Positions 10,775 through 40,630 of a DNA stretch of 64,000 nucleotides are shown here, piece after piece. Source of the DNA: Camelus dromedarius (lineage: Eukaryota). Where the stretch lies: positions 8,742,001 to 8,806,000 of the forward strand of contig NC_087436.1 in NCBI RefSeq assembly GCF_036321535.1, read 5' to 3'. The translations under genes and the position numbers were made by a program. The first letter of the stretch is position 1. The number at the start of each line of letters is the position of its first letter. Under the pieces are notes generated by a model. It ran no database searches, was not told the origin of the DNA, and saw only the letters and a program-made list of their open reading frames with translations.

Positions 10775-13700
10775 GTAGTTTAAGATGGTGACATAGAAAG
10801 ATCCTAAACTTACCTCCACACACATCAAATCTACAGCTACATATTGCTCAATTCCCTCTGAAAAAGACCTAGAAACTAGCTGAACAGCTGCTCCACAACA
10901 AAAGAAAGCCCACCCTGAGATGGGTAGAAGAGGCAGAAATACAGTCTCCCCCAAAATGTTACACCCAGTTTTCTCCCCAAACCAGAGAAAGTCCACAATT
11001 ACAGACTTCACCCTGAGGAGCAATGGGTTCAAGCCCCACCCCAAACACCCCAAACCTGGGAACCTGCACTGGAGAGACAAACCCCCAAAGGCCAGCTTTA
11101 AAACCAGTGGGGCTTATGTTCAGGTGCCCAAAATGCTGTGGAGATTGGAAAGTCTGGTTTCAAAGGGTTCACCTGCAGACTCACCCTACCCCCCAAGCCC
11201 AGGGTAAAAACACCATTTGAAAAATACCTAGACCATATGGAAAGAGATTCCTCAGCTAATCTTAAAGTGTTTCCCGGGGCACAGGAATCTGCTGGGGCTT
11301 TCTCCAGGGGCAGAGGCATGGCTGGGTGCCATTTTGCTCTCTCACTCCACCTTGGTAGAGCCAGCACTGATGGGCACCAGTTTTAGTGCTCCCCTTACCT
11401 TGCTAGTGCTGGCTGGCTTGCCCCTTCCACCTACTCTCCCACAGCCCTACTAAAGGCAACCATCTCTCCCCACCCATGATCCCTGTATGACCCTGCTGCA
11501 GCCTGTGGGCTTGTCTGGTGCCAGGCTCACCCATGGCCCTGGCTTCACTCATGGCTCTGTTGCAGCTGATGGGCTGCCCTCAGCCTTGGGCTCCCCCTTA
11601 GTCTCACTGAGGTTGATGGGTTTGCCCCACCCAGAAACCCTCCTGTTACCCTTGCTCCCCCCAGTCCCAGGCTAGTCTGTGACCCTCTTGAACCCGATGA
11701 GCACATAGTCCATACAGGGCACATCCCTTGAGCACCCAGTGCAGGTGGCCAAGGGGACCTAGGTTTCTGGGCCCCACAGGACTGAAACAATTGGAGAGAC
11801 AGTTCTTGGCAGGCTACCACCTCCAGGACACAACACAGGCAGCAGACTACATCACATACCCAGAATTTTTGTGACAAAGCCCTATTTACTTGTCTCTGTA
11901 TGCCAGTCTGAAGGGCAAGGTCTGAGCTTATCACACATCTAGAAGCTACAAAGGAGTTCTCAGCAAATGCAGGCTGGAGATGCCATCTTTGTGCTCTCCC
12001 TGGGCCTTGCTACAGCTCACCAGTACCTCCCAGAAAGGACCTTACATGGCTATCTGGAGCCCAGATTTTGTAACTGTCTCCAAGGAGACATCTTCCAATC
12101 ACCTGGTCTGGAGGCCAGCAGGGTTTATAAAGGCAGTCACACAGGATTGTGTATATTCGCATACTTTAAAAGCTGCCTGAGGGTCTAGCTTCCAATCAGC
12201 CTAAAACTAGGTGCTGACAGTAATCTTTCCATGTGTAATACTGACATGGCTTGGCCAACCTCAATAAGTGGAACCTACCAAGAATAAATTAGGCCAATTA
12301 GACAATCACAAAGGGTCTAGAGACGATCAGAACTAGGACAAGTTTGAACAATAACATTGTCTACACAAGGCTACACCTTCAAGGCTGGGAGAGGCAGTGT
12401 TTCACCTAATACATAGAAACAAATACAGAGAGACAAGAACAGGAGGAAACAATGGAATATGTTAAAAACAAAAGAACAAGATAAAAACACCAGGAGGAAA
12501 AAAATAAAACTTAAAAATGGAGATTTGTAATCTACCTGATAAAGAGTTATAAGTCATGGTCACCAACCATGGCAGAGGATGGATGAACACAGTGAGAGCT
12601 TCAGCAAAGACAAAAAATACACAAAAGTACCAAATAGAAGTCACAGAGCTGAAGAATACAATAACTGAAATAAAAAATATACTAGAAGAGTTCTAAAGCA
12701 GATTAGATGAAGAAAAGAATGTATCAGTCACCTGGAAGCTGAACAGCAAAACTCACCCAGAGTGGTAAAAAGAAAAAAATAATTTAAAAAAAAATTAAAA
12801 ATAACTTGAGGTATCTGTGGGATAAAATCAAGCAGAATAATATTCAGATAATAGGTGTACCAGAAGGAGGAAACACAAAGAAAGGGGAAGAAGATATATT
12901 TGAAGAAATAATGACTGAAATCTTCCCTAATCTGGGGGAGAAAACAAACATTCAGATCTAGGAAGCAAAGAGAATTCAAAACAAGATCCACAGCAAGCAC
13001 ATTATAATTAAAATGTCAAAAGTAAAAGATAAAGAGAGAATTTTTAAAACAGAAAAGAAAAAAACAAAACAAAACTGCTGTGTACAAGAAAGCCCCGATA
13101 AGAATATCACCTGTCTTCTCAACAGACACTTTGCAGGCCAGAAAGAAGTGGCAATGATAAATTCAAACTGCAGAAAGTAAAACAAAAAAACAAAAAAGTC
13201 TAACTAGAGTACTCTACCCAGCAAAGTTTCATTCAGAATTGAATTGAAGTAGACACCAAGAGCTTTCCAGATAAGCAAAAGTTAAAAGAGTTAATCACCT
13301 GCAAACCAGCCTTACAAGAACTATTAAAGGGACTTCTTTAAGCTGAAAAGAAAAGGCACTAACTAGTAATAAGAAAATATAAGAGGTAAAAATCTCACTG
13401 GTAACGGCAAATGTATAATAAAGGTAGTGGATTAACCACTTAACTAACCTTAACTAGCCTTAACTAACATAAAGGCTAAAGGACAAAAGTAGCAAAATTA
13501 ACTATAACTACTATAGTTAGTTAATAAATATGCAAAATAAAATGATGTAAAATATGACATCAAAAATGTAAAACATGGGGAGTGCCTAAAAATGTAGATT
13601 TTAAAAAATGTGTTAAAACTTGAGTTGCTATCAGCTTAAAATAGGCTGTTACATGTGCACTCATGGTAACAACAAAACAAATACTTAAGTACATACCCAA

Positions 13701-17986: not shown

Positions 17987-18259
<273 letters not shown>

Positions 18260-35529: not shown

Positions 35530-37280
35530 AGGGAGTGTTCAAAATGGTGGTGTAGGAAGATCCTTAACTTATGTCCTTTCACAGAAACAACAAATGTACA
35601 ACTTCATATGGAATAATTCCCTCAGAAAAAGACGTGAAACCTGGATGAACATCCTCCACGACAAAAAATAAAAGAAAAAGCACTGAGATGTAAAATAGAG
35701 GCAGAGATACGAGTTGGCCAAGGAAAAACCCGCACCCCAGCCATGGTGATCCACCATTGCGCGGGGTCACAAAACTAGAGATTTTTTAATCTAGATCCTG
35801 CACAGGAGAGATAAACCCCAAAATGCCTGGATTTGAAAACCAAAGATGAATACACTCAGGAGAACCACAGAACTGTAGGAAATCAAAAAACACCCTTAAA
35901 GGACCTGTGTGCAGACACCCTCAACCTGAAAGCCGGTGTAAACAAACCAGAATAAAAGGTGCAGTGTCAATAAATAGTGAAGTGTCTGCCAGGGAGGCTG
36001 GAAACAGTCGGGATGCTCCCAGGGGAGCAGTCACAGGCAGGAGCCATTTACTTGAGCTCAGGCTACGTTGTTAACACCAGCACTGCCAAGTGCAGTAATG
36101 GAATTCTCCCTCTAACCTGCTAGCACTGGGCATGCTCTGCTGAGAGCCCTGCCCACCCCTGCACCTTGGCGAGGCCTCAAGCAAGCTGAGTGACAGCCAC
36201 ACCCACCAATGCATTATAGCAGCTGCAGACAGACCGCAAACCTGGTGCGAGGGCCAGTGCCACCCACCAGTGCCCCACAGCAGCCACGGTCCCACCATAG
36301 CAGGAGGATACACACAGCCTACAGAGGGGACACCCACTGAGTGCCTGGCCCAGCCACTGAGTGGACAGGTCAGACTGCACTTCTGAGCCACATAAGACAC
36401 CATCCAAACAAGGTCCCTCTTTCAGTACTGGGAGAGACTGCTGATATCCCTAATACATAGAAAGAAGCAAAGAGAATTAAACAAAATGAGAAGATAGAGG
36501 AATAAGTTCCAATCAGAAGAACCTATGAGGGGTGGGAACCTAAATGAGCAGAGATAGGCAATCCACCTGATACGAAGTTCAAAGTCATGGTCATAATGAT
36601 GCTGACCGAACTTGGGAGAAGAATGGATGAGCACAGCAAAAATTCCAACGAAGAGGCAGAAAATATAAGAAATCACCAAACAGAAGCTATAGCTAAATGG
36701 AAAGAAAACTCAAGGGGTTTTCAATAAACAAAAGGGAATAGAGAAAGAGAAGAAAAAGAAAAAGAGAGGAGCTGCAAAGCTGGCCAGAAAGCAATTTAAA
36801 AAATGGCAATAGGTATTTAGCTATCAATAATTCCTTTACACGTAAATGGATGAAATTCACAAATCAAGACATCAAGTTTATGCGTGGATAAAAAAGACTC
36901 ATCTACCTGCTGCTTACAAGAGATTTCCTTCAAAACAAAAGACACAAAGACTGAAAGTAAAGGGATGGAAAAAGATACTCCGTACAAAAACAAAAAAGAA
37001 AGCTGTAGTAGCAATACTTGTATCTGACAAAATAGACTTTGAAAGAAACACTATAATAAGACAAGGAAGGGACTCACAAATGATAAAGGGATCAACCCAA
37101 CAGAAAGGTGTAATATTTATAAATATATATGCACCTAACAGAGAAGCATCAACGTATATAAAGCAAATATTACAAACTGAAAGGGAAAAACTGAAAGCAA
37201 TCCAATAAACTTCTGGGACTTTTACAGCTCCCTTACATCAATGCACAAATCATCCAAACAGAAAATCAATTAAAAAAAAT
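35530..37280 (+). mobile_element. L1 5' portion: 5'UTR, partial ORF1, ORF2 endonuclease domain; 3'-truncated
   Basis: The start aaaatggtggtgtaggaagatcct is homologous to the start of the 10775 element. ORF1 jumps to the inter-ORF region at about 36720. EN peptide LKVKGWKKI..VAILVSDKIDF..INIYAPN is present. Ends at cagaaaatcaat plus an A-run. Confidence 0.88.
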
Positions 37281-37799
37281 CAAACTTATTTTATCAAACA
37301 TTACCACTCCAAGTAATTCCAGCCTTATTGTGTGATGTTCTATTTGCTAAAAACAATCTTGCAATTATTCACAACTGAATTTGAGAAACATATATAAATA
37401 TAAGTTATATATTTATATATGAGATTATGCATACATCACACAAACACACACATAGAAAGTAGTACACAAGGAAATCACTTGCTTCCCCTGGGATGGGTGT
37501 CTCTAAGGTACTCTTCAGGTTTTCCAAGAATATCCATAACTATACATTAATTCTTTAACTTTTATTTGACATATTAACTAATTTAAACATTGAGCACTTA
37601 AATATATTTTAATTGTAAAAATGTAAAGATTAAGATAGCAATATTTTTCTTCCTGAATGGATCTATAAGTGTAAATTCCCTTTTCTTCAGGTAAAATATC
37701 ATTTTATGAATATTAAATGTCACTTTTAAATTAAAATATAATAAAGAATCACTCTCAATTTAGGGAATTTACGTGTCCCTGACTCTTAATTTTGATCAT

Positions 37800-37925
37800 A
37801 GCTTTATAGTAACTAAGCTTTTCATGGTGATCATTTCATAATTTATAAAAATATCAATTCACTATGTTGTACATCTGAAACTAATGTGATATTATAAGCC
37901 AATTATACTTCAATAAAATAGAAAT
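37800..37925 (+). mobile_element. Short L1 3'-end fragment
   Basis: ggtgatcatttc...atgttgtacatctgaaactaat...ttatacttcaataaaa. Confidence 0.7.
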
Positions 37926-38814
37926 CATGACAAGAATTACAAAATGTTCATTTCAGACTATTCAATAGAGTTGTTTGAGAAGTTTTCAGTCATTTAGTCC
38001 ATAGAATTGACATACATTGCAAACTCATAGGAAAAGAATAGGAGAGAGCTAAAGATACAGACAGACAGGCAGACGCAGAGTCAGAGAGACAGAGAAATAA
38101 CAGAGACAGGCAAGAAGGGAGACAATTAAGAGAAAGAAAGAGGGCAAGGAGCCCAGGAAAGCAAGAAAATACTAACAAAGTATGGTATCTCAGGGATAAA
38201 TATACACCCTAAGATGAAATCAATTGCTGCCTCTTTACAATATATTGCTTTCCTTTAATAAACTTATTATTTATTAGCCACCAAGTATTTAATGCGTGCC
38301 TCCTCATATCATACACTCGGAAATGTTGTCACTTCCCTTCTTGAGCCTGTTAGGATCCTTGGAGAATCGTAGACCCGAAACAGTTACACGTTTTCAAGTG
38401 TCAGTTCTGATCTTTGGTCAGTGCAGCTCCCAAGTGAGAACTTTCACTAACAGGCTGGAGTGTTCACTATAGTTTTCCTGAGACCAATTAAGACTGTAAG
38501 CTAATGGCAGGCAGATAATAAAGAAAACAGATTTTTATAAAGAGATCGGTCAATATACTTGTCTGTGATGGATGCAAGTATATAATATAGGTAATGGTTA
38601 TTATATGCAATATGAAATATGTAGATACAGCAATGCTTATAAATATATTATCTATATGTGCATACACATCCTGTATACTTGGATATAAGTCTCAGTGACC
38701 AAGCTCACACAAGCTGCCCTCATGGAAATCAATTCCTCCTGGAAAGGAATACGAAGGAGATTAAAGGCAATCATTTCAAATATGTTGTCTCATTTTTCAC
38801 TCATCAAGAAGCAC

Positions 38815-39330
38815 AGGCCCCGAGGTGGCGTCCGCGGACTTCAGGAGGCCAGGCCTGCCGCGCGGCGGAGGGCCCTGTGACCGTGTGCTGCGCCGCCACC
38901 GAAGGGCGGCGGGGGCTGCCGCCCCGCCTGTCCCCGCGCGCGGCCACCCTGGTGACGAACGGACACGCCGTTTCAGGACAGGAGTCCTTGCGTGAGTTTT
39001 CTGAGATGCTGCCTTCCAGCGAGTTCCAGATCCACGCGGTGGACTGCCAGCCCGTTCACGGCGGAGCCACCCGGAGCCAGACCACCGTCGTCGTGGTGAC
39101 CCGGGGGACGGGGAAGTTCGAGGGCAGCAAGCAGCGGGACGTCAACCAGAACGTCATCCTGACCGCCCAGGCCTCACCGGGCAACACGGCGTGGGAGATT
39201 GCCAGGGGCTGCTTCCGCTTCCAGAACCGGGCCCGCTAGTGGGGGCACAGTCACACCCCCAGCCCGCCCTCTGCCCTGCGCCCCGCCCCCCCCCCGGTCC
39301 AGGGCCCCTTCCTGCGCACGTGCGTGTTTG
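38815..39330. promoter_or_regulatory. CpG-island-like segment coinciding with the NXT1 retrocopy
   Basis: Hand count for 38821-39300 gives about 72% GC and about 52 CpG (obs/exp about 0.8) in an otherwise strongly AT-rich, CpG-poor window. It contains GC boxes (CCCCGCCCC near 39281) and CACGTG at 39317-39322. Regulatory activity is not shown. Confidence 0.7.
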
Positions 39331-39435
39331 CCATAGCTGCCCTTTCAAAATAGTAAGATTCTGTATTTTTCTGCTTGCCCTGTACAGACCCTGGTTCTGG
39401 AAATTCTGATGAATAAAACAGTGAGTGTTGAAAAA
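38817..39435 (+). pseudogene. NXT1: Processed pseudogene (retrocopy) of NXT1 (NTF2-related export protein 1/p15), antisense within an FSTL5 intron
   Basis: 38825-39239 aligns end to end with recalled NXT1 ([63 protein letters not shown]..stop). The start codon is ATG->GTG at 38825, and an 8-nt frameshifting deletion follows codon 7 (415 vs 423 nt). AATAAA lies at 39412-39417 and an A-tail starts at 39431. Imperfect TSD: AAGAAGCACAG 38806-38816 / AAGAAAAACAG 39436-39446. Confidence 0.92.
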
Positions 39436-40389
39436 AAGAAAAACAGAATATTTGCAACAGTCCTCGGCCCCATTTTTTAGACATGTGGGCTCAGAAAAAC
39501 GCGACAAGTAATAGCGAACCAATCTGGACAGTTTCTAAGGTCCACATTCTTTCAAGTTTTGTTTTCATTATTAACTGCTACTACTGATAACACAAATTAC
39601 AGAAATAAATCGTTGAAAATATAGAGAAAGGATGTTATAATTATATGAGTCAAGTCGAATCCACAGAAGGGGGTCTATCACTACAACTGATCAACAGAAA
39701 GGAGAGTGCGCATTTATCAGAGTTACGGATACATTTTCCAAATGAGCTGCAAACCCAGTGGAGGGGGAGAAAATTTCGGAGTGAAGAAAAGTGAGAAATG
39801 GGAAAATACCAATCCGGGCTGAGATTTAATTTAGATAAATGTAAGGTAATACCCAGAACGAATTCTGAAAGAAAGAAACACATTGATGTGGGCTGGTTAG
39901 AGACCAAACAATGTTTGGAGATTAACTGTATGTTGTTATGGGAGAGAATTTTGCTACATGACAGTGAAGCAAAACTAAATAAAAGATGAGTTATAGTATG
40001 GGAAGGGTATTACTACCCTTTGATCCATTTGCAGCAAACAATAAATGTTTAAAACAATAATAATTTTAATAACTAAATTTTTTGAACCCTAAGTATGTGC
40101 TAGACATTGTACTAAATTCTTTATCTTAGTCTTGGAAACCCCAATTAATATTGAAGCAAGTATTGTTATTATCCTGAGGTTGTAGGTGGGGTATGAGATC
40201 TTAGGAAGGTTAAATAATTATTCAGAGTTGTAGAGTTATGAGCAGTGGAGCAAAGATGATATAAAATTTGAACACTTACAGCATAAAATTTAAAGAAGAG
40301 AAAATTAAAAGCAGTATGCCAAAACACTGAATAATAATATATAGAAATTAAGGTTTCAGTAAAACACAATTTTCACAATTATTTGTAAC

Positions 40390-40630
40390 ATACATTTAAG
40401 TACTTACGAGGTGCTACACTATTTCCCATGCTTTATTAGGTTTTATTAATTTAACCCTCCAAAGTCATGTGAGGTAGAATTATTCCATTTCAAAGTTAGA
40501 AACACGGGGAGAGGGAACAATTGTGTAACTTTCCTAAGGACATCCGACGGTGAAGCGGTTGAGCTGGGACTGGAATGTAGCACTCCACACCGCCAGCTCC
40601 AGGAGTGAGGGCTCGTTAGCACCATGCTAC
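40390..40630 (-). mobile_element. MIR SINE
   Basis: gtgaggtagaattattccattt...aactttcctaaggaca...gagctgggactggaa. A second MIR-like piece lies at about 40070-40270. Confidence 0.6.

Follow-up and report, generated by a model that had tools for sequence, protein, structure and literature searches.

A disabled NXT1 retrocopy with a strong A/T to G/C substitution bias in the dromedary genome: a candidate site of GC-biased gene conversion

The stretch of the dromedary genome that we analyzed (64,000 nucleotides; hereafter the window) contains a disabled retrocopy of NXT1 in which A/T has been replaced by G/C far more often than the reverse. Alignment of this window copy with the intact gene of the same genome reveals 84 differences at 589 aligned sites, comprising 53 weak-to-strong changes (A/T to G/C; W>S), 12 strong-to-weak changes (S>W), 17 S>S changes and 2 W>W changes, and the comparisons given below establish the direction, size, strand symmetry, indifference to function, narrow extent, and persistence along lineages of the bias. 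GC-biased gene conversion (gBGC) at a CpG island that would be unmethylated in the germline is probably responsible, and offers the best reading of the sequence comparisons. This mechanism is already known in kind, and no new kind of mechanism is revealed here. The locus is, however, a rare and clean natural experiment, since the ancestral sequence is known from the conserved parental mRNA, the element has no function, and a second copy is decaying normally; as a result, how strong a GC-favouring process is, and how long it lasts, can be measured free of selection. Coordinates of the features discussed in the text are collected in Table 1.

Only three NXT1-like places are found in the genome, these being the window copy, the intact gene on contig C18 (L002), and an older processed copy on contig C7 (L003) that carries sequence upstream of the exon-2 acceptor unlike the parent's intron. 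The parental gene has an intact ORF of 140 aa, with 138 of the 140 residues being identical to those of cattle NXT1, and this identity rules out drift of the parent as the source of the differences. The window copy is 83% identical to the parent at the DNA level (query positions 11-625), and its translation, which is matched by the Pfam NTF2 model (PF02136; E=3.9e-11), exhibits 66-69% identity to mammalian NXT1 sequences versus 53-60% to those of NXT2. The window copy is thus a retrocopy of an NXT1 transcript rather than of a different paralog. Alignment with the parent stops at about position 39430, corresponding to the 3' end of the mRNA, and is followed by AAAAAAAGAAAAACAG, while the parent continues in unrelated genomic DNA without an A-run. 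The only evident parental intron is located in the 5'UTR, upstream of the point at which the 5'-truncated copy starts. A metagenome scan with the parental protein returned two distant NXT-like loci (75-77% identity), which are of no help in polarising camelid sites.

Table 1. Features of the NXT1 retrocopy and its surroundings (positions within the window).
Feature	Position	Strand	Details
Processed NXT1 mRNA copy, 5'-truncated	38796..39446	+	Exon-2 5'UTR remnant, coding region, 3'UTR, A-rich tail
NXT1 5'UTR remnant	38796..38824	+	~21 nt missing; contains supposed 5' target-site duplication, 38806-38816
Former start codon, ATG to GTG	38825..38827	+	Alignment to parent, codon table
8-nt deletion site (parental codons 8-10; after 38845)	38844..38847	+	Shifts original frame
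129 leftover NXT1 codons and TAG stop	38850..39239	+	Open only within stop-free frame 38643-39239
11-nt insertion, G+C only, in 3'UTR	39278..39288	+	Absent from both parent and C7 copy
AATAAA polyadenylation signal, inherited from NXT1	39412..39417	+	Block identical in parent
A-rich tail remnant, AAAAAAAGAAAAACAG	39431..39446	+	Sequence, alignment to parent
CpG island / W>S-enriched tract	38806..39330	.	100-bp bins 66-78% GC, 7-13 CpG each; flanks 27-47% GC
Downstream flank with mild CpG enrichment ('shore')	39447..39905	.	GC 32-43%
Upstream exon of other species' gene models	36013..36094	+	GT donor 36095-36096; tblastn of C. ferus P0121: 27/27 residues identical
AG acceptor	38807..38808	+	Joins upstream exon in frame to retrocopy in C. 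ferus model

A first-pass annotation, made from the letters of the window alone, described the copy as disabled by loss of the start codon and an 8-nt deletion, with about 40 replacements in 129 codons. Comparison with NXT1 of the same genome bears this out, given that ATG has become GTG, eight nucleotides are missing, and 41 amino acids are replaced in codons 11-140. Relative to the parent, dN is 0.179 and dS is 0.165, and because dN/dS is 1.08 there is no protein constraint on the window copy. These lesions and replacements mean that the coding function is gone, and the value of dN/dS, together with the lost start codon and frame, rules out a functional retrogene having an intact ORF under purifying selection. 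The same annotation paired the two ends of the insert as an 11-nt target-site duplication (TSD) with two W>S mismatches, a claim that is not supported: among direct repeats linking the junctions, the best reaches a score of 7, which is equalled by 229 of 500 shuffles, and the supposed 5' TSD instead matches NXT1 5'UTR as preserved in the C7 copy, with a local alignment score of 12 that is reached by 4 of 500 shuffles. A decayed TSD may nevertheless be present at the window copy.

Positions 38806-39300 (495 bp) have 71.5% GC and contain 52 CpG, with an observed/expected ratio (o/e) of 0.82, in agreement with initial estimates of about 72% and about 52. The segment qualifies as a CpG island by sequence (at least 200 bp, GC of at least 50%, and CpG o/e of at least 0.6), and is the sole CpG-rich stretch of a window with 34.7% GC and a CpG o/e of 0.23 overall. 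Surroundings so rich in AT give no hint of a regionally high recombination rate over the long term. At its 5' edge the rise in GC is very sharp, with 39% GC at 38706-38805 versus 74% at 38806-38905. Downstream of the copy, the ~460 bp of the 'shore' contain 11 CpG versus 2.8 expected from the window background (Poisson 2e-4, ignoring clustering), and signs of spill-over into flanking DNA are limited to this mild excess. Both flanks are unique in the genome, there being no repeat copies to serve as a consensus, and substitutions within them are therefore not polarisable. The parental coding region is itself already GC-rich (61.2% GC, GC3 0.89), and the parent carries 38 CpG within the aligned 590 bp, so that roughly half of the CpGs and much of the GC in the window copy are inherited. 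The rise in the coding region is from 61.2% to 70.3% GC and from 38 to 54 CpG. By codon position, GC goes from 0.54 in the parent to 0.657 in the window copy at position 1 and from 0.409 to 0.569 at position 2, and is 0.891 in both at position 3.

The W>S excess claimed at first sight holds against the true parent (53 W>S versus 12 S>W, as given above), and among the 50 changes at residues conserved in the parent and four other mammals it amounts to 39 W>S and 2 S>W. When the C7 copy is used for polarisation, 51 changes are private to the window-copy branch, with 30 W>S versus 7 S>W. The parent does not carry the changes, and no GC-rich source copy already bearing them is present among the three loci, which answers an objection foreseen at the outset. 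The excess is confined to ~520 bp, and the changes are scattered evenly over roughly 420 bp, not clustered at motifs. They are also symmetric with respect to strand, with T>C seen 22 times versus 18 for A>G (p=0.64), and A>C 7 times versus 6 for T>G. This symmetry argues against RNA editing or transcription-coupled bias, and RNA editing is ruled out when the presence of transversions is taken into account as well. As for the parental CpGs, 27 of the 38 are kept in the window copy and 3 have been lost via the TG/CA deamination route. New CpGs appear at chance level (25 of the 71 changes to G/C are now within CpG, versus 23.3 expected), and the drive is therefore toward G/C generally and not toward CpG. 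A short tract in which polarised W>S changes greatly exceed S>W changes, on both strands alike and irrespective of function, is what gBGC is expected to produce.

Normal pseudogene decay runs opposite to A/T to G/C change, and the C7 copy decays in this ordinary way even though it started from the same sequence as the window copy, with which it has in common its origin in NXT1 mRNA, an A-rich tail, and disabling lesions. In the coding part, the C7 copy exhibits 12 W>S versus 38 S>W changes, compared to 26 versus 4 in the window copy (Fisher p=4e-8). When the full length of the alignment is counted, the C7 copy has 26 W>S versus 51 S>W and the window copy 30 versus 7 (p=2.5e-6). Moreover, the C7 copy has kept 15 of the 38 CpGs and lost 11 by TG/CA deamination, whereas the window copy has lost 3 in this way.

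Predicted proteins indicate that the locus is also present in two further species of Camelus and in a more remote relative (P0001). The models for C. ferus and C. bactrianus have the same peptide as the window copy with 1 difference each, and P0001 shares the upstream exon, differing at 3 of 27 residues, together with many of the same derived residues. Assigning changes to lineages from predicted proteins and inferred codons, not DNA, gives 16 W>S and 1 S>W shared by the window copy and P0001 in codons 31-140, and 12 W>S and 0 S>W specific to the window lineage after the split from P0001, of which ~9 are firm when inspected by hand. For the P0001 lineage, the scripted count is 3 W>S and 2 S>W, which hand review resolves to 4 and 1, with one ambiguous. 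The shared locus suggests that the insertion predates the split of Camelus from the more distant relative, and the counts suggest that the bias continued on both lineages. The window copy is set apart from the models for C. ferus and C. bactrianus by two changes only, each of them S>W, as against 39 W>S to 2 S>W among older changes (Fisher p=0.007, n=2). Recent S>W changes overlying old W>S changes are what biased fixation acting on ordinary S>W mutation would predict for these two cases (n=2), although they could equally mean that the process has stopped in Camelus.

We propose that a CpG-rich NXT1 mRNA was reverse-transcribed and inserted, 5'-truncated, into AT-rich DNA before Camelus split from the more distant relative sharing the locus. 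Because it would have arrived with island-level CpG density, the insert may have stayed unmethylated in the germline, a putative state that we read from the CpG retention described above. Hypomethylated, promoter-like spots would act as default (PRDM9-independent) sites of meiotic double-strand breaks, and mismatch repair of heteroduplex at such breaks would favour G/C alleles. With the ATG and reading frame lost, nothing would oppose the bias, and codon positions 1 and 2 would climb toward the ~0.9 GC already held by position 3. Retention of CpGs, and the formation of new ones at chance rate, would then maintain the island in a self-reinforcing loop. The bolder proposition that arrival of a CpG-rich retrocopy in AT-rich DNA created a new, self-reinforcing, PRDM9-independent hotspot, active since before the two camelid lineages split and still driving the sequence toward ~90% GC, is a tentative one that we regard as possible but doubtful. 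If it is true, the locus represents a natural experiment, with a date attached, on how a CpG island and hotspot come into being, having a known start sequence and an ordinary sister copy, in a family whose published PRDM9 models are without a zinc-finger array. The window copy also allows a test of whether CpG density is by itself enough to establish an enduring unmethylated island and hotspot where PRDM9 is present in a mammal.

An unlikely alternative is that the island is unmethylated in the germline without being a site of recombination, the W>S changes arising from a local bias in mutation or repair, such as error-prone or GC-favouring repair where the DNA is open and dense in CpG, combined with the absence of CpG deamination. 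The loss of only 3 of 38 CpGs by the TG/CA route would fit, as would the coincidence of the sharp edge with the inserted sequence. G<->C transversions are frequent as well (17 of the 84 differences), hinting at altered mutation rather than fixation alone; given that they are unpredicted by gBGC, they may point to an added mutagenic component. Missing methylation, however, explains the absence of S>W changes and not the conversion to G/C of 39 of the 159 coding A/T sites at conserved residues, and no mutational process known to us acts alike on both strands to yield A>G, T>C, A>C, and T>G at once. A fixation bias is also in better accord with the pair of recent S>W changes, set against the older 39:2, albeit with n=2. 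That selection drove the gain in GC and CpG after co-option of the copy, whether for a regulatory role as a CpG island or to supply the last exon of a transcript that starts in an L1 and is specific to camelids, strikes us as improbable. The value of dN/dS, the loss of start codon and frame, and the replacement of 41 of 130 residues in a protein that is almost invariant among mammals all speak against such a role, as do the creation of CpG at chance level and the even spread of changes over ~420 bp, away from motifs; an open ORF is in any case expected at 70% GC. On the other side of the balance, the C. ferus (P0121) and P0001 gene models both join the exon at 36013-36094 to the copy, and between 0.08 and 0.32 of the words of 37800-40400 occur in RNA runs, with 0.30-0.32 in RNA-run contigs, where these fractions refer to the whole stretch and are not placed within it. 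Retrocopy-borne intronic CpG islands can moreover become promoters, as described for PPP1R26P1 in RB1 (PMC3839921).

Agreement between the two retrocopies raises the question of whether the bias is largely inherited, in which case the window copy would stem not directly from today's NXT1 gene but from a GC-richer template since lost, or else from a transcript made early on by the C7 copy. At 19 of 571 sites the two copies share a base that differs from the parent, and they also have 5'UTR states in common; moreover, the same site has undergone W>S change in both copies 19 times versus 10.3 expected (p=0.0009). Seven of the 19 agreeing sites are at residues where other mammals support the parental state, and these consist of six T>C changes, five of which turn TpG into CpG, and one G>C change. 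Some of this overlap is nonetheless to be expected, since the parent has undergone S>W changes itself and the W>S loads of both copies allow for parallel change by chance, and we consider such descent very improbable given that the genome has three NXT1-like places only and that no indels are shared. In addition, the 51 private changes of the window copy are by themselves biased (30 W>S versus 7 S>W), and the bias goes on after the split from P0001. It is hardly credible that the GC-rich sequence is an artefact of assembly or sequencing, for which we found nothing specific beyond the fact that GC-rich stretches are harder to sequence. The early concern that the data might not support the assembled sequence is met by 14 DNA runs, all from one organism and including 5 whose samples carry no flag as a possible assembly source, each of which contains 0.97-0.98 of the sampled words of 37800-40400. 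Independent assemblies of the two other Camelus species also encode the same peptide with 1 difference each.

GC-biased gene conversion, as the preferred reading, has close precedents. In 39 of 52 placental mammals, the majority with an intact PRDM9, hypomethylated loci are inferred to be hotspots that are independent of PRDM9 and marked by gBGC (Joseph et al. 2024; PMC11161765). This weakens the contention of the first-pass annotation that the pattern would be notable in a PRDM9-bearing camelid. Its overall interpretation survives for the disabled retrocopy and an A/T to G/C bias with features of gBGC, and lacks support for the TSD. Camelids are absent from the text and four supplementary files of that study, and our literature search on PRDM9 in camels and alpaca found no camelid hotspot study. 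In the accounts given there and for the dog (PMC4350167, PMC3861134), PRDM9-independent hotspots and gBGC tracts are similar to the window copy in that equilibrium GC peaks locally where CpG is dense and W>S far exceeds S>W over long periods in a lineage with a PRDM9 gene. Those hotspots were, however, located using mouse or dog maps and lie at ancestral regulatory loci, whereas the island described here came into AT-rich DNA with a retrocopy and is known from its sequence. Orphan CpG islands, which are reported to arise through gBGC tracts or often to overlap them (PMC11170920), are likewise non-promoter islands in which GC and CpG rise via W>S fixation. As presented in that report, the evidence for these islands is genome-wide and statistical, whereas the window copy is a single locus with a known start sequence and a second-copy control. 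A third parallel is PPP1R26P1, a truncated retrocopy that forms a CpG island in intron 2 of RB1 (Kanber et al. 2013; PMC3839921). As described there, it too derives from a CpG-rich mRNA, lacks the 5' end, and has endured as a CpG island, and its sister retrocopies elsewhere differ in fate, as is the case for the NXT1 copies, which argues that the integration site decides. PPP1R26P1 is associated with differential methylation, imprinting, and promoter use and, unlike for the window copy, the abstract describes no W>S drive.

Supplementary table 1A of Baker et al. 2017 lists a camelid PRDM9 ortholog with KRAB-SSXRD-SET domains and intact catalytic tyrosines, and the published camelid PRDM9 models in that table are without a zinc-finger array. 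Our Pfam SSXRD search of the genome gave a single match, on contig C37, and no SET, KRAB, or zinc-finger match was obtained for 83 ORFs in a 40-kb span that reaches 30 kb below this match and 10 kb above. A search with PRDM2_PR gave 23 exon matches at many loci, none of which is assignable to PRDM9. The SSXRD and PRDM2_PR searches thus provide no evidence for or against an intact PRDM9 in the dromedary genome.

These findings also have a consequence for annotation in that the NXT1-like protein models at this locus in C. ferus and C. bactrianus are best regarded as over-annotation, and those named 'NTF2-related export protein 1-like' in Camelus species are very probably pseudogene artefacts. 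The C. ferus model of the locus is flagged LOW QUALITY. In that model (P0121), the peptide across the junction fits the last base of the upstream exon followed by AA at 38809-38810, and the DNA around the upstream exon looks, by eye, like the 5' end of an L1 element.

The stretch 38806-39300 (495 bp, 71.5% GC, 52 CpGs, observed/expected 0.82) is the sole CpG-rich stretch in the window, which overall has 34.7% GC and a CpG ratio of 0.23. GC content in 100-bp bins rises from 0.39 (38706-38805) to 0.74 (38806-38905), stays at 0.66-0.78 as far as 39305, and then falls to 0.47 and 0.39. Plus-strand translation yields NXT1 (Pfam NTF2 match, E=3.9e-11), and comparison with the parent gene bears out the description, in the first-pass annotation, of a GC- and CpG-rich copy in AT-rich DNA that has been disabled by start-codon loss and an 8-nt deletion. 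A separate 500-bp segment at 11251-11750 is also GC-rich (58.6%) yet fully CpG-depleted (2 CpGs, ratio 0.05), unlike the retrocopy island.

Features of the retrocopy and its relatives in the window's own genome
Feature	Position	Strand	Remark
Former start codon, ATG to GTG	38825-38827	+	comparison with parent
8-nt deletion	after 38845	+	comparison with parent
Stop codon TAG	39237-39239	+	
AATAAA	39412-39417	+	
A-rich tail	39431-39446	+	
Parental gene (L002)	C18:46967253-46967864		83% identical to window copy
C7 copy (L003)	G000:C7:60671895-60672500	-	68% identical to window copy

Searching the window's own 2.3-Gb assembly identified three NXT1-like places, namely the window copy and the two loci on C18 and C7. 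The C18 locus is the parental gene: it has an intact 140-aa open reading frame, an upstream splice acceptor and no A-tail, and its protein is identical to cattle NXT1 at 138 of 140 residues, with 3, 5 and 9 differences from the porpoise, rhinoceros and vole proteins. The C7 locus is an older processed pseudogene: it has many lesions, an A-rich tail and, upstream of the exon-2 acceptor point, additional sequence that does not resemble the parent's intron. Having begun as the same sequence as the window copy, it serves as a control. The parent is itself GC-rich (coding region 61.2% GC, GC3 0.89, 38 CpGs in the aligned 590 bp). Thus the proposed gain in GC and CpG is real in that the coding part rose from 61.2% to 70.3% GC after insertion, but the insert brought with it roughly half of the CpGs, as well as most of its contrast to the neighbouring DNA.

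The 5' end was less well described. The 11-nt target-site duplication that had been proposed (AAGAAGCACAG versus AAGAAAAACAG) is at chance level, 229 of 500 shuffles being as good, and the segment 38796-38817 matches the NXT1 5'UTR as kept in the C7 copy (score 12; 4 of 500 shuffles), so that the two "W>S" (A/T to G/C) mismatches in this duplication lose their value as evidence. About 21 nt are missing between this remnant and the start codon of the window copy, and the retrocopy probably begins near 38796. The exon-2 5'UTR of the present parent (L002:1457-1509) reads GGAGCACCCGGG where both retrocopies (38796-38824 and L003) have GAAGCACAGG; it may thus be the 5'UTR of the parental gene itself that has altered, in part by W>S changes, after the two copies arose.

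The window copy differs from its parent at 84 of 589 aligned sites (38826-39425), comprising 53 W>S, 12 S>W (the reverse), 17 S>S and 2 W>W differences; T>C (22), A>G (18), G>C (12), A>C (7) and T>G (6) are the most common, followed by C>T, C>G and G>A (5 each), C>A (2), T>A (1) and A>T (1). Three-way parsimony over 571 columns of the window copy, parent and C7 copy (13 sites ambiguous) assigns 30 W>S, 7 S>W, 12 S>S and 2 W>W changes to the window copy, 4, 11, 4 and 0 to the parent, and 26, 51, 18 and 6 to the C7 copy (window copy versus C7, p=2.5e-6). In the coding part the contrast is 26 W>S to 4 S>W for the window copy versus 12 to 38 for C7 (Fisher p=4e-8). A second polarisation, independent of C7, used non-synonymous changes at residues common to the parent and four other mammals; these 50 changes comprise 39 W>S, 2 S>W, 8 S>S and 1 W>W, and the remaining coding differences 7 W>S, 6 S>W and 1 S>S. 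Because 39 of 159 parental A/T coding sites in this set became G/C and only 2 of 253 changed in the opposite direction, the counts imply an equilibrium GC of about 0.97; all-site counts give roughly 0.8-0.9. The W>S bias proposed in the first-pass annotation is therefore upheld by alignment to same-genome NXT1.

The two retrocopies share a state that differs from the parent's at 19 sites (window 38825-39425 versus L003). At 7 of these (six T>C, of which five convert TpG to CpG, and one G>C), other mammals back the parental state, and these seven are therefore not parental changes; they arose either in parallel or while the copies shared a short stretch of history. Codon 28, for example, has gone from ATG to ACC in both. 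Same-site overlap exceeds expectation for W>S changes (19 versus 10.3, p=0.0009) and for TG/CA to CG changes (5 versus 2.2, p=0.036), and is due in part to genuine parental S>W changes and the heavy W>S load in both copies. Under parallel change and shared history alike, the C7-polarised figure of 30 W>S changes for the window copy is conservative.

The bias is strand-symmetric (T>C versus A>G, p=0.64; A>C 7 versus T>G 6) and blind to coding function (dN 0.179, dS 0.165, dN/dS 1.08). From parent to copy, GC goes from 0.54 to 0.657 at codon position 1, from 0.409 to 0.569 at position 2, and stays at 0.891 at position 3, i.e. the freed positions are rising towards the existing level of position 3, which is undecayed despite AT-rich surroundings. 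Of the 38 parental CpGs, the window copy has kept 27 and lost only 3 as TG/CA, compared with 15 kept and 11 so lost in C7, and it now has 54. Changes to G/C fall in CpGs at the chance rate (25 of 71 versus 23.3 expected, p=0.70), and the push is therefore towards G/C in general rather than CpG specifically. The first 175 bp diverge from the parent by 19-21% and the remaining coding region by 9-14%; in the 3'UTR, divergence is 19.5% in the GC-rich part and 6.3% (6/95) in the AT-rich last part.

The assembled sequence is supported by sequencing runs, at the level of sampled words, and by other assemblies: 14 DNA runs from one organism, five of them from samples not flagged as a possible assembly source, each contain 0.97-0.98 of sampled words of 37800-40400, and two other Camelus assemblies encode the copy's peptide. 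For the same entire stretch, contigs from two RNA-labelled runs, one labelled reproductive system, contain 0.30-0.32 of sampled words, and those from four further RNA-labelled runs 0.08-0.16.

A protein search with the window copy's translation gave three relevant matches: a 77-aa Camelus bactrianus "NXT1-like" model (P0003; one difference, I for V), a 170-aa Camelus ferus model flagged LOW QUALITY PROTEIN (P0121; one difference, D for E; in P0003's 90% cluster), and a 139-aa model (P0001) with 86% identity over 85% of the query. P0121 and P0001 open with a common 27-residue peptide encoded by the 82 nt at 36013-36094 (+), which is identical to P0121 at 27/27 residues and to P0001 at 24/27; this peptide identifies P0001 as a model of this locus in a less closely related species. 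A GT donor at 36095 follows this upstream exon, which the P0121 model splices to the AG at 38807-38808, suggesting an L1-initiated chimeric transcript that would end at the retrocopy's AATAAA. On reading, the surroundings (35900-37300) resemble the 5' end of an L1.

For codons 31-140, codon states were deduced from protein only, which makes the counts approximate. Changes common with P0001 number 16 W>S and 1 S>W, plus 4 S>S and 1 W>W; those on the window lineage only number 12 W>S, 0 S>W and 2 S>S (about 9 W>S being firm non-synonymous changes by hand review); and those on the P0001 lineage only number 3 W>S, 2 S>W and 3 S>S, or 4, 1 and 3 with one ambiguous when codons are chosen by hand. 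The bias therefore predates the P0001 split and persisted in both lineages, with greater strength in that of Camelus. Camelus species differ at two sites, and both differences are S>W: the window has C>A, and C. bactrianus has G>A within a CpG. Set beside the older 39:2, this gives p=0.007 (n=2). The pair is compatible with ordinary S>W mutation passed through a fixation filter that favours W>S, and also with a process that stopped recently.

GC-biased gene conversion (gBGC) at a germline-unmethylated island brought in by the retrocopy is the best-supported reading, with hotspot, methylation state and fixation bias all putative, and every sequence-level prediction of it that we examined was borne out. 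Dense CpG would leave the insert unmethylated in the germline, such promoter-like DNA would be a default site of meiotic breaks, heteroduplex mismatch repair would favour G/C, and the climbing GC and CpG content would keep the island alive. Against this stand the very sharp 5' edge, the lack of any hint of flank spill-over beyond a downstream CpG excess (11 versus 2.8 expected), the AT-rich regional context, and the frequency of G<->C transversions (17/84), which suggests some added mutagenesis. On balance gBGC at an unmethylated CpG island is probably the cause, and it is more likely still that some G/C-favouring process tied to an unmethylated island state is at work. Known elements of this picture include orphan CpG islands, many of which overlap gBGC tracts according to PMC11170920; the truncated retrocopy that makes up a CpG island within intron 2 of RB1, with fully methylated sister copies, described by Kanber et al. 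2013 (PMC3839921); and the link between retrocopy promoters and CpG islands drawn by Carelli et al. 2016. The mechanism is thus known rather than new, in an unusually clean case whose value lies in the controls it contains: its ancestor is known, the element has no function, and a sister copy has gone the opposite way.

The first-pass interpretation is thus partly supported: it holds for the A/T to G/C direction of change and its agreement with gBGC, but not for the target-site duplication, and the pattern is less surprising in a PRDM9-bearing mammal than was supposed. In Joseph et al. 2024 (PMC11161765), a GC* signal exactly of the kind found here leads to active PRDM9-independent hotspots being inferred in 39 of 52 placental mammals, most of them species with intact PRDM9, and in 33 of the 52 the hotspots lie at hypomethylated loci that are conserved; camelids are not named in its text or in four of its supplementary files. 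Baker et al. 2017 (supplementary table 1A) list PRDM9 orthologs in C. bactrianus, C. dromedarius and Vicugna pacos as KRAB-SSXRD-SET; the models contain all three catalytic tyrosines and no zinc-finger array. The SSXRD of this ortholog was not picked up in a genome-wide Pfam SSXRD search, which gave one match (L008, G000:C37:77887805-77887885, minus strand); no SET, KRAB or zinc-finger match was present among 83 ORFs in the 40 kb scanned around it. PR/SET-domain (PRDM2_PR) exon matches with internal in-frame stops at G000:C3:85118540-85122298 (+) and G000:C30:11842032-11843580 (-) may represent intron edges or broken PRDM genes.

Two metagenome contigs (L004, L005) encode NXT-like peptides 75-77% identical to camel NXT1, presumably from a eukaryotic host or eukaryote DNA within the metagenomes. 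The intron proposed in the first-pass annotation to hold the retrocopy is putative: in the window itself, the only exon-like signal seen for a host gene is an ORF at 17987-18259 (-) whose Ig I-set match falls below threshold (E=3e-4; 21.1 bits versus a cut-off of 23.7), which is possibly an exon of an opposite-strand host gene.
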